A stretch of 48,288 bases of DNA from a virus (Duplodnaviria; Heunggongvirae; Uroviricota; Caudoviricetes), in IMG/VR virus record IMGVR_UViG_2923307698_000006; one strand, 5' to 3'. This document shows positions 12,001 to 15,000 of the stretch, piece after piece (position 1 is the first letter of the stretch; each line of letters opens with the position of its first letter). Made by a program: the position numbers.

Positions 12001-15000
12001 TGGACTGCGCTTTTTCCTGCATCTGTGCCAGACGGGACTGCTCAACGGCAAGCTGCTCTGTTGCCTGAGCAAGCCCTTCCGTTACGGTCTTCACCGAGGT
12101 CAGATGGTTTATCATGAATCCGTCACCGGTCGTCCAGCCCGGGTTCGCCAGAACATACTGATATCCTGCGATTTTTTCCTGCAGGGATTTCACCCGACTG
12201 GCCTGTTCATCAATCAGCCGGTTCTGCTCTGTCAGCGCCGCCCGTGTTCGTCCTTCATTATCTGAGGCTTCAGGCAAAGACATTGACGGCGTTTTATGCG
12301 CGATTTCATCTATCGTCAGTGCATACTGGCGCGCAGACTCCCTGGCCTGCTCCTGATTCTGGTACAGCGTGTACCATGCTGCAGCCCCCAGCATCACCAG
12401 TCCGGGTACGCCACCAACCAGCCCCAGCGCACCGCTCATCAGACGTGAGCCCACCGCCGTTGTACTGTTCAGCGCATTCTGGGCGGCGCTTCTGGCAGCA
12501 ATATTTCTGTTCAGGCGTTCCTGTGTGGCCGCCAGACGGGCCTCTGCAGCAATCTGCATCTCCGTCCCGCGGGCTGCCGCCACGGCCTGCTGAGCACGGT
12601 ACACGGCTGCCCTTGCCCGCGCCGTGGCAATCTGCGTTCCCCTGAACTGTGCTTCCGCCAGTGCAACTTCATTACGTGCAGCCGTCACAAGTCCTGCCGT
12701 GGCAGACATCGCTCCGGAGGCCATATTGCCAAAGTACCGGGCAACCCCGACGGCAACCAGCGCGCCCACGGCTGTTGCCACATTATCAATCTGTCCGGCA
12801 ACACCGTTCAGCACGCCGGAGAGCGTTTTCGTCACCCCGCTGGCCTCATTCGCACCACCCACCCAGGCCATAAAGGCGTTTTCCACCTTTGTGATCCCGT
12901 CAGAGACCGTTTCCGGCATGGCCGCGTATTCATCACGCAATACCTCCAGCTGGCTGATTAACGCAGGAACGACTTTATCCGCCGTCAGTTTGCCGTCGTC
13001 CGCCATCGCCTTAAGGTCTTTACGGGCCACGCCCATACCCGCAGCCAGTGCACGTATGATCCGGTCTCCGCTTTCATTGACCGAATTAAATTCCTCACCC
13101 CGTAACACACCCTGTGCCAGCGCCTGGCTGAACTGGGTGATCACCGAGCCCGCCTCTGCCGTACTGGCACCGGAGATTTTCAGCCCTGTCGAAATGGCCT
13201 CCGTCACCTTCAGTACATCACCGGCACTGTAACCATATTCACGCATCGAGGCAGCCGAACGGGCAAACAGGGCCGCATTATCCGAAAATGCCGTGCCTGT
13301 CCGCTGGCTGATATCCATCAGCACTTTCTGTGATGACGAAAATTCATCAGATGACTGCGACGCCTGTTTCAGACGGGCATTCACGGAACTCCACTCATCA
13401 GCCAGTGAAATCAGGTGTCCGGAGGCAAAGGCACCGGCAAATGCGCCAGCCATTCCGACAGCAGAACCGCGAATTTCCGTCAACTGGCTGTTCAGTTCTG
13501 CCAGGGCACGTCGCTGCTCCCGGGCTGCCGCAGCGGCCTGACGCCCGCCATTCTGCAGGGTCCGGTAATATTCACTGCCCATACGGGACGCCCGCTGGAT
13601 CTCCGACTGGAATGACTGTGAATTTGCCGAAATTTTGATAATCAGTTCACGTAACGTCGCCATTCACCTTTCTCCGGGCAAAATAAATATCCTCCGGCAT
13701 AGCCGGAGGTTTTTCAAATGCGCCTATAAGGCTCTCTTACCAGCCGCGCCCTAACAGGCGCACACGATCTGACATTTGCATCCAACTTCGTTACTTACGG
13801 CCCGTAAACGGGCTGCCCGGATAGGGAATCGATAACTGCTCTCCCATTTTATCCTCTTCAAGCTGGTGCTTTATGTAATCCTGTATCTTCGCCGTGTTCT
13901 TACCCACCGTATCGACGTAATACCCTCTGCACCAGAACTCCCTGTTCCTGTACTTGAATTTCAAATCACCAAACTGCTCGTAAAGCATCAGACTGCTTTT
14001 CCCTTTCAGATATCCCATAAAGCCGGATACGCTCATTTTGGGCGGGATCTCCACAAGCATATGGATATGATCTGCACAGCATTCAGCTTCCAGAATCCGT
14101 ACACTTTTCCACTCACACAGCTTTCTCAAAATACAGCCTATTGCTCTACGCTTCTCTCTGTAGAACACCTGTCTTCGGTATTTTGGCGCAAATACTATGT
14201 GATATTTACAGTTCCATCGGGTGTGCGCTAAGCTCTTTTCGTTCCCCATTGGGACCCCCTTTTGATTTCTTGTTTGACACTTGCAGTTGCCAGACCGCAA
14301 GGTGTTTTAACAAATCAAAAGGGGTTTTAATAACTGGCTCAAAGCTGAAAGCTTTCCGGAACCCCCAGCCTAGCTGGGGGTTTTCTGTGCACAAAAAAAC
14401 CTGCCACAGCAGGTTTTCATCATTATTTATGACATTGCTGCAAGGCTCAGCGCGTCTTCCAGCGCCGCAAACGGATCCACCTCCGGCTTATCCTCATCCT
14501 CGCCCCAGCAGAGCATGGCGTCCTTCAGTGCAACATTCATCCCCTGTGCCCCGAAAACCGCTTTCACGATCTGTGCATTACGGATATCCCCGCGCTCATC
14601 ACCCAGCGGGGATACCCTGTCAAACTCCATCCACATCATCGCCTCGCTCGCACTCAGGCTGTGCCGCAGTTCGGATAAGGTGCGCCCCAGACGGAGCGCA
14701 AGTCGCATCAGAAAGCGAATTTCCGGGCGGGCTACTTTTTTCTGGCCGACTCTGCATCAGCGATCAGTTCCAGTGCCTGACGCAGCAACCGGGCATGTAC
14801 CGGACCATAGACGGCCAGCACCTGCTCACGGTCGTCCGGAGTGAACACCCGTTGCAGGTCAGTATCACACAGGACATCGCAGAACAGCGTCACATCCGCT
14901 TCCAGGTTACGGCGGGTTTTCGCCACCACCGACAGGGTATCGTCATCCTCTCCATCACCATTGAGCACTTCCTGCCACAGATACCAGGCCTCTGCCGAAG

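Follow-up and report, generated by a model that had tools for sequence, protein, structure and literature searches.

An IS200C element inserted at a terminator-like hairpin between tail genes T and H of a lambdoid prophage is probably a tolerated passenger

We analysed the tail region of a lambdoid Escherichia coli prophage contained in a 48,288-nucleotide (nt) stretch of DNA, IMG/VR record IMGVR_UViG_2923307698_000006, hereafter the window. In this prophage, an insertion sequence (IS), IS200C, lies between tail genes T and H. Along the minus strand, the genes for the major tail protein (15112..15957) and tail assembly chaperone G (14732..15106; Pfam Phage_TAC_1, 2.3e-61) are followed by T (14427..14708; Pfam Phage_tail_T, 4.6e-19), the complete 711-bp IS200C (13682..14392) and the tape measure gene H (10421..13663), an intact open reading frame (ORF) of 1080 amino acids (aa) with matches to TMP_3, Phage_HK97_TLTM and Tape_meas_lam_C. 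The last codons of G are ...AGA AAA AAG TAG. The T reading frame, at -1 relative to G, stays open through the slippery heptamer A AAA AAG (14735..14741, minus strand), so the G/GT frameshift arrangement is intact. The evidence points to a precise insertion of IS200C at a terminator-like hairpin of the T-H junction, where the element is probably a tolerated passenger and not a knockout.

The element carries a single gene, tnpA (13791..14249, minus strand), predicted to encode a Y1 HUH transposase of 152 aa. This ORF matched Pfam Y1_Tnp (PF01797, 'Transposase IS200 like') with E=1.7e-37 over positions 2-121 of 121. Similarly, phmmer matched TnpA to the solved IS200/IS605 TnpA structures 2EC2, 2F4F, 2A6M and 2VHG (E=1e-22 to 1e-18), with the HUH motif DHIHMLV and the tyrosine motif RGYYVDTVG in register with DHIHLFV and RSYFVSTSG, respectively. 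The 169-aa ORF that holds the 152-aa tnpA was the sole ORF in the element with a family match, and ORF and Pfam checks revealed no tnpB and no second credible gene within the 711 bp. The DNA of the element was 98-100% identical to chromosomal, plasmid and phage copies that RefSeq names IS200C; the tnpA product of the 100%-identical copies is WP_000526113.1, annotated in RefSeq as the IS200C transposase. The name IS200C rests on RefSeq/PGAP annotation. Judged by these matches, the element is a full-length IS200C (IS200/IS605 family, IS200 group), and the copy is apparently functional.

The ends were fixed by aligning the window with seven copies from unrelated contexts (yecJ-azuC, a phage region, typA, mgtT-dgcZ, a plasmid, hisIE-wzzB and rnpB), together with two phage-borne copies and the empty site. 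In all eight aligned copies, similarity began with GTGCACAGAAAACCCCC and stopped with GGAGGATATTTATT, which places the left end (LE) at 14392 and the right end (RE) at 13682 on the minus strand. The ten independent copies (eight aligned and two phage-borne) were 711 bp each and had the form GTGCAC...ATATTTATT. The tips, GTGCAC... and ...TTTATT, are not inverted repeats, and the element has no terminal inverted repeats. Instead, both ends bear a subterminal hairpin on the same strand, about 10 nt from the LE tip and 9 nt from the RE tip. The LE hairpin, AACCCCCAGC-TAG-GCTGGGGGTT (14360..14382, minus strand), has a 10-bp stem and a predicted fold of -18.7 kcal/mol. The RE hairpin, CCTCCGGC-TAT-GCCGGAGG (13691..13709, minus strand), is terminator-like on both strands, is followed by ATATTTATT up to the element tip, and was kept in every aligned IS200C copy. 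The two hairpins are related, with compensatory changes at two base pairs and a different base at one loop position, and an A-rich stretch precedes each.

An earlier note on this DNA, made from the sequence alone, had described an IS200-family tnpA between T and H in an element of about 710 bp with hairpin ends, at 13688..14400. The tnpA assignment is upheld by the Pfam, Rfam and DNA matches, and the hairpin ends by the folds and the alignment of copies. The length was right, the exact figure being 711 bp; the coordinates were 6-8 bp off, as the aligned copies and the empty site show.

Between the LE hairpin and tnpA, a stem-loop (14256..14324, minus strand; fold -32.1 kcal/mol, z=-5.2) buries the tnpA Shine-Dalgarno sequence, with the art200 (STnc490) antisense RNA opposite. 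Rfam model RF01405 (STnc490, the 5' untranslated region (5'UTR)/art200 region of IS200) matched over its full length at 14259..14382 on the minus strand, with 146 bits against a gathering score of 56, and the LE hairpin corresponds to positions 1-23 of the model. In IS200, the LE hairpin is a bidirectional Rho-independent terminator directed against impinging transcription (PMC4513863, PMC5435999), of which it stops about 85% of transcripts (PMC5435999), while the second stem-loop blocks translation and art200 acts as an antisense repressor (PMC4513863, PMC5435999). The tnpA promoter has been described as weak and undefined (PMC4513863) and IS200 as nearly dormant (PMC5435999). A sigma-70 consensus scan of 13400..14800 returned no promoter-like site, 1.2 being expected; thus, there was no evidence in this interval for an outward IS promoter driving H. 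Weaker Rfam matches at the hairpins, to STnc370 (33 bits against 54), Ysr202 (26 against 315), PsrR1 and BSnc120, were far under their gathering scores and were dropped as reflecting generic terminator hairpins.

The insertion target is the T-run of a second, phage-derived hairpin, AAAACCTGC-TGTG-GCAGGTTTT (14393..14417 with its T-run, minus strand; fold -12.5 kcal/mol). The T stop codon is separated from the LE by 34 nt of native phage sequence that includes this terminator-like hairpin and the seven T's of its run that remain upstream of the LE. Two T's of an original T9 are left downstream of the IS (13680..13681, minus strand), and 18 nt, TTGCCCGGAGAAAGGTGA, lead from the RE tip to the ATG of H. 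The Shine-Dalgarno sequence of H, GGAGAAAGG, and its ATG (13661..13675, minus strand) are both intact and identical to those of empty sites. Indeed, the local context upstream of H is nearly unchanged: a hairpin followed by a U-rich spacer of 9-11 nt, as in the empty sites.

The junction without the element is common. Using a query made of the flanks only, we found the T-H junction in 1,244 genomes, the IS being absent in all but six carriers, and 90-odd phage records had the IS-free junction, among them BP-4795 and numerous Shiga toxin (Stx)-converting phages. Overall, the uninterrupted junction has a spacer of 51-52 nt with a terminator-like hairpin and a T8 or T9 run; the T stop and H start are 51 nt apart in three fetched empty sites, which read ...TAAATAATGATG AAAACCTGCTGTGGCAGG TTTTTTTT GCCCGGAGAAAGGTGA ATG. 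Removing 13682..14392 from the window gives a T9 allele, and many O157:H7 prophages match this sequence at 100% identity over 170 nt. Because the reconstructed allele exists, the insertion is exact (T7-IS-TT), with nothing duplicated or lost. The absence of a target duplication is as expected for the IS200/IS605 family. We also considered an imprecise end or a 1-nt duplication, suggested by the difference between T8 in empty sites and 7+2 T's in the filled site; the existing T9 allele explains this difference.

Two further statements of the earlier note were right in part. The IS does lie between T and H, but these genes are not otherwise adjacent, as the spacer separates them even without the IS. 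Likewise, the terminator-like hairpins placed on both sides of the element are real, but just one truly flanks it: the low-coordinate hairpin (13691..13709) is the right end of IS200C itself, and the high-coordinate hairpin (14396..14417) is the phage's native T-H hairpin, present also in uninterrupted prophages. The related prophages compared at this junction had the 51-52-nt spacer and none of 760 nt, the length the note had named for a spacer that would speak against insertion, and the boundaries match IS200C exactly.

A terminator scan missed the native hairpin on the minus strand, counting A-T pairs into the stem and so shortening the T tail. We treated this miss as an artefact of the scan rule and relied on the fold and the sequence. 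The hairpin, polymorphic for T8 and T9, is conserved between the GT chaperone and tape measure genes of this prophage/Stx-phage family, and it might tune the ratio of chaperone to tape measure transcripts when the antiterminator Q is limiting.

The element is widespread in the host species. Based on a megablast of 13600..14500 against complete E. coli genomes, IS200C-annotated copies occurred in 3,321 of 5,426, with up to 35 places per genome. Six records, 14EC047, 14EC017, O39:NM F8704-2, E110019, Z1323HEC0393 and CD45, matched all 901 nt, including both junctions, at 99.9-100% identity. In these six complete RefSeq genomes, the transposase is labelled 'IS200/IS605-like element IS200C family transposase' and its neighbours 'phage tail assembly protein T' and 'phage tail tape measure protein'; the T-H insertion is, then, already known.

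We compared the loci of five of the six carriers, 14EC017 being left out. The prophage adjoins potB/espK in E110019, F8704-2 and Z1323HEC0393, and zinT/yodB in 14EC047 and CD45. The backbones are mosaic, with 100% identity to the window for several kb around the IS and 94-97% in other blocks, and the regions around Q differ among carriers. Of the carriers compared, E110019 matched the window best, at 99.2% over 34.5 kb, and none of the five was the origin of the window. A single insertion event is the simplest reading of the identical junction common to the six carriers, and the mosaic backbones and two chromosomal loci indicate that the IS-bearing tail module has moved between backbones since. 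Either recombination between lambdoid prophages residing in one host or transfer by phages may have spread the module, the mosaic blocks preventing a choice. The Z1323HEC0393 prophage also contains one element of the IS3 family, which separates the major tail gene from gp17 (22268..23445 of the compared locus), and ISEc22, of the IS66 family, in the late regulatory region (38661..40901 of the compared locus).

The position of the element at a hairpin followed by T's is shared by the other copies. A GC-rich hairpin with a T-run abutted the LE in 8 of the 8 aligned E. coli copies and in both phage copies. In addition, one genome per species was scanned with the LE sequence, which gave 58 unique flanks upstream of it in Kluyvera, Citrobacter, Phytobacter, Brenneria, Serratia, Yersinia and further Enterobacterales. 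On folding, all 58 had a hairpin and then a T-rich tail ending TT. A strict rule demanding a perfect stem was satisfied by 49 of the 58 flanks, against 16 of 20,000 random positions in the same loci. The last five bases of the 58 flanks were TTTTT (38), TTATT (11), TTCTT (4), TTGTT (3), TATTT (1) and GATTT (1); together with the ten E. coli and phage copies, the flank 5' of the LE ended TT at 68 of 68 sites. One E. coli site was a tandem IS200C-IS200C in which the RE was joined directly to the next LE, an arrangement that fits the resemblance of the RE (hairpin and ATATTTATT) to the target. Since the examined IS200C copies sit at terminator-like flanks, the T-H hairpin of this prophage family is the kind of site at which IS200 typically inserts.

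Yersinia IS1541 is a close relative of IS200. A copy of it lies between pheL and pheA, a region that holds an attenuator terminator in E. coli (PMC3082878). In a 2026 survey, terminator-like sequences were enriched immediately upstream of IS elements, and IS200/IS605 showed the strongest effect (PMC13548323). The 68 of 68 sites sharpen this family-level enrichment, and targeting this strict suggests a testable rule for where IS200 lands and why it is frequently harmless.

The element is in the same length class as Salmonella and E. coli IS200, at 711 bp compared with 707 bp for Salmonella IS200 (PMC4513863). It shares with IS200 the single 152-aa Y1 HUH tnpA, the LE terminator hairpin, the stem-loop sequestering the Shine-Dalgarno sequence, art200/STnc490, the RE hairpin, and the lack of inverted terminal repeats and target duplication. 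The element itself is no different from IS200C/IS200; only its location between T and H of a prophage is particular. The likeness extends to IS608 and ISDra2 in the TnpA fold family with its HUH and Tyr motifs, the related same-strand subterminal hairpins at both ends, insertion 3' of a short specific sequence abutting the LE with no target duplication, and a 3' end that resembles the target (TTATT or TTTTT in IS200C). Unlike these elements, IS200C is without tnpB, and its target is a T-rich pentamer ending TT after a host hairpin, not a bare TTAC or TTGAT. The prophage shares with lambda the gene order major tail protein, G, T (reached by -1 frameshifting on a slippery heptamer), H, M, L, K, I and J. 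T and H abut in lambda, whereas this prophage family has the 51-52-nt spacer with its terminator-like hairpin even without the IS.

The consequences for the tail genes depend on how the late operon is transcribed. A gene for the antiterminator Q (33729..34550, minus strand; Pfam Antiterm PF03589, 4.7e-50), labelled 'antitermination protein' in two carrier loci, lies at the head of the late operon, and all late genes, which span 33.7 kb to 1.4 kb, are on the minus strand. Judged by this gene content, the prophage is lambdoid, with a Q-family antiterminator upstream of a single co-directional block for lysis, head and tail. Q suppresses polarity and remains associated with RNA polymerase while the late genes are transcribed, and Q-loaded polymerase passes multiple terminators over long distances (PMC12360218, PMC8191782). 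Moreover, since the hairpin with T8 or T9 is native in about 1,240 genomes, late transcription must already ignore terminator-like signals. The insertion leaves G, GT, H and the ribosome-binding site of H untouched, and each of the ORFs H, M, L, K, I and J is intact in the window, as it is in the carriers E110019, F8704-2 and CD45.

These observations are consistent with the following scheme. IS200C would have transposed once, precisely, into the T-run of the native T-H hairpin, in the same orientation as the late operon. In the lysogen, the element would be silent. During lytic growth, Q-modified RNA polymerase would read through the native hairpin, the IS200 LE terminator and the RE hairpin. 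H and the downstream tail genes would still be expressed, perhaps at a reduced level, and the insertion would therefore be a tolerated passenger.

A precedent comes from two lambda-like phages, Lambda_ev058 (LR597651) and PhiR63_2 (PV340574), in which a 711-bp IS200C of identical type lies directly after tR2 (CCTTTTTATT-IS), between ren and ninB. It was recorded at 4001..4727 of the Lambda_ev058 stretch compared and at 4001..4729 of the PhiR63_2 stretch compared. The Lambda_ev058 junction is CCTTTTTATT-IS-TGGGGG, and in both phages the element points in the direction of pR transcription and precedes Q. Lambda_ev058 is an isolate from the infant faecal virome that was plaque-purified and amplified (PMC6969025 and its source data); thus, an in-line IS200C in an antiterminated lambdoid operon is compatible with plaque formation. 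These insertions are in the N-dependent delayed-early operon, whereas that of the window is in the Q-dependent late operon.

The competing explanation that fares best, built on the likely polarity and possible tail defect proposed in the earlier note, is that the co-oriented IS200 is strongly polar, shutting off H, M, L, K, I and J so that heads are made but no tails. It would act through the LE terminator, through an untranslated tnpA exposing Rho sites, and through the RE hairpin. Three terminator-like hairpins now stand in series upstream of H, and tnpA, which is hardly translated, could expose Rho entry sites; however, the late operon is subject to antitermination by Q, which overcomes polarity at intrinsic and Rho-dependent sites alike. 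One of the three hairpins is native to the junction in about 1,240 genomes and in the phage records of the family, H keeps its own Shine-Dalgarno sequence in almost unchanged surroundings, the downstream tail ORFs are intact in the window and the three carriers named above, and a viable phage bears an in-line IS200C within an antiterminated operon. We consider strong polarity improbable, and it is likewise unlikely that the IS alone abolishes tail production. The claims of polarity on H to J and of a prophage possibly left without tails are unsupported, and probably wrong, given the presence of Q, the native hairpin, the intact H Shine-Dalgarno sequence, the intact ORFs and the Lambda_ev058 precedent.

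Several points nonetheless weigh against tolerance and, in part, for polarity. The LE hairpin of IS200 terminates about 85% of impinging transcripts when these come from ordinary promoters (PMC5435999), and IS200 was discovered as a polar hisD mutation (PMC4513863). The Q type of the prophage differs from lambda Q, and Q types vary among the six carriers; the Lambda_ev058 precedent concerns N-dependent, not Q-dependent, antitermination. The insertion is present in only 6 of about 1,240 genomes, which fits a recent or mildly deleterious event. Finally, the Z1323HEC0393 prophage, with its two further IS insertions, is clearly decaying, and the window has a frameshift in its side tail fibre gene. 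PGAP also marks a frameshift in the portal region of several carriers. The prophage may be defective for reasons unrelated to IS200.

It is far less probable that the element has been co-opted, either as an insulator silencing leaky tail transcription in the lysogen or as a source of IS200 5'UTR/art200 RNA for the host. IS200-derived RNAs do regulate host genes in Salmonella (PMC5435999), and the element is 100% identical among carriers; however, these carriers hold several other identical IS200C copies (3-6 places), so that nothing unique is added, and the rarity and mosaic spread of the insertion fit neutral hitch-hiking. That the 711 bp are ancestral to the prophage lineage and were deleted elsewhere, or are an assembly artefact of a repeat found in up to 35 places per genome and thus prone to misassembly, is effectively refuted by the occurrence of the same unit with identical ends in unrelated chromosomal, plasmid and phage contexts, by the exact restoration of an existing allele on its removal, and by a junction common to six independent complete assemblies.

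The insertion of IS200C at this junction is for the most part ordinary, already-annotated biology that matters little beyond good annotation. The practical gains are exact coordinates and an explanation of the 'flanking terminators'. More generally, an IS in a lambdoid late operon is no automatic knockout, since antitermination can suppress polarity. A bolder idea, which we regard as speculative and doubtful, is that IS200C is a 'terminator hunter', its TnpA recognising a terminator hairpin and U-tract that mimic its own RE, with the phage life cycle coupled to its spread. If so, hunting for terminators would place IS200C in transcriptionally insulated, harmless sites, of which those in phage operons would be read through only under antitermination. 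Induction would then give a burst of tnpA transcription along with abundant single-stranded replicating DNA, tying IS200 mobility and horizontal spread to the phage cycle, with the phage as vehicle and not victim.

Several other features of the window were recorded. At 17355..19939 (minus strand), a portal ORF of 454 aa with a full Pfam Phage_portal match ends ...CTG AAA AAA TGA, its stop codon overlapping the ATG at the start of another ORF, which encodes 407 aa and lies in the -1 frame. The latter contains four tandem repeats of about 80 aa, and Pfam gave no convincing match for it; in four carriers, PGAP annotates the two ORFs together as 'phage portal protein, frameshifted'. The arrangement could reflect a programmed -1 frameshift on the A-run, giving a portal-extension fusion, or simple ATGA coupling. 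The 645-aa 'major capsid protein' (20151..22088, minus strand) combines a Peptidase_S78 prohead serine protease and an HK97-type capsid in one ORF.

The side tail fibre gene (1656..2975, minus strand) encodes a prophage tail fibre N-terminal domain and collagen repeats. Its frameshift lies inside the collagen-like repeats, residues 1-307 and 297-437 being in different frames relative to the intact 437-aa ORF of E110019, and it reflects genuine inactivation or else a sequencing error in a homopolymer or repeat. The prophage family is one of lambdoid, effector-carrying E. coli prophages: a gene for a type III effector of the NleB family (228..1208, minus strand) lies at the tail-fibre end, and espK is found a little beyond the edge of the window. 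A Cu/Zn superoxide dismutase gene, sodC (~7339..7866, plus strand), lies on the opposite strand between J and a tail assembly gene, and the late regulatory region holds a RelE-family toxin with a helix-turn-helix partner (31284..32027, minus strand); the identities of the effector, dismutase and toxin pair were taken from the carriers.

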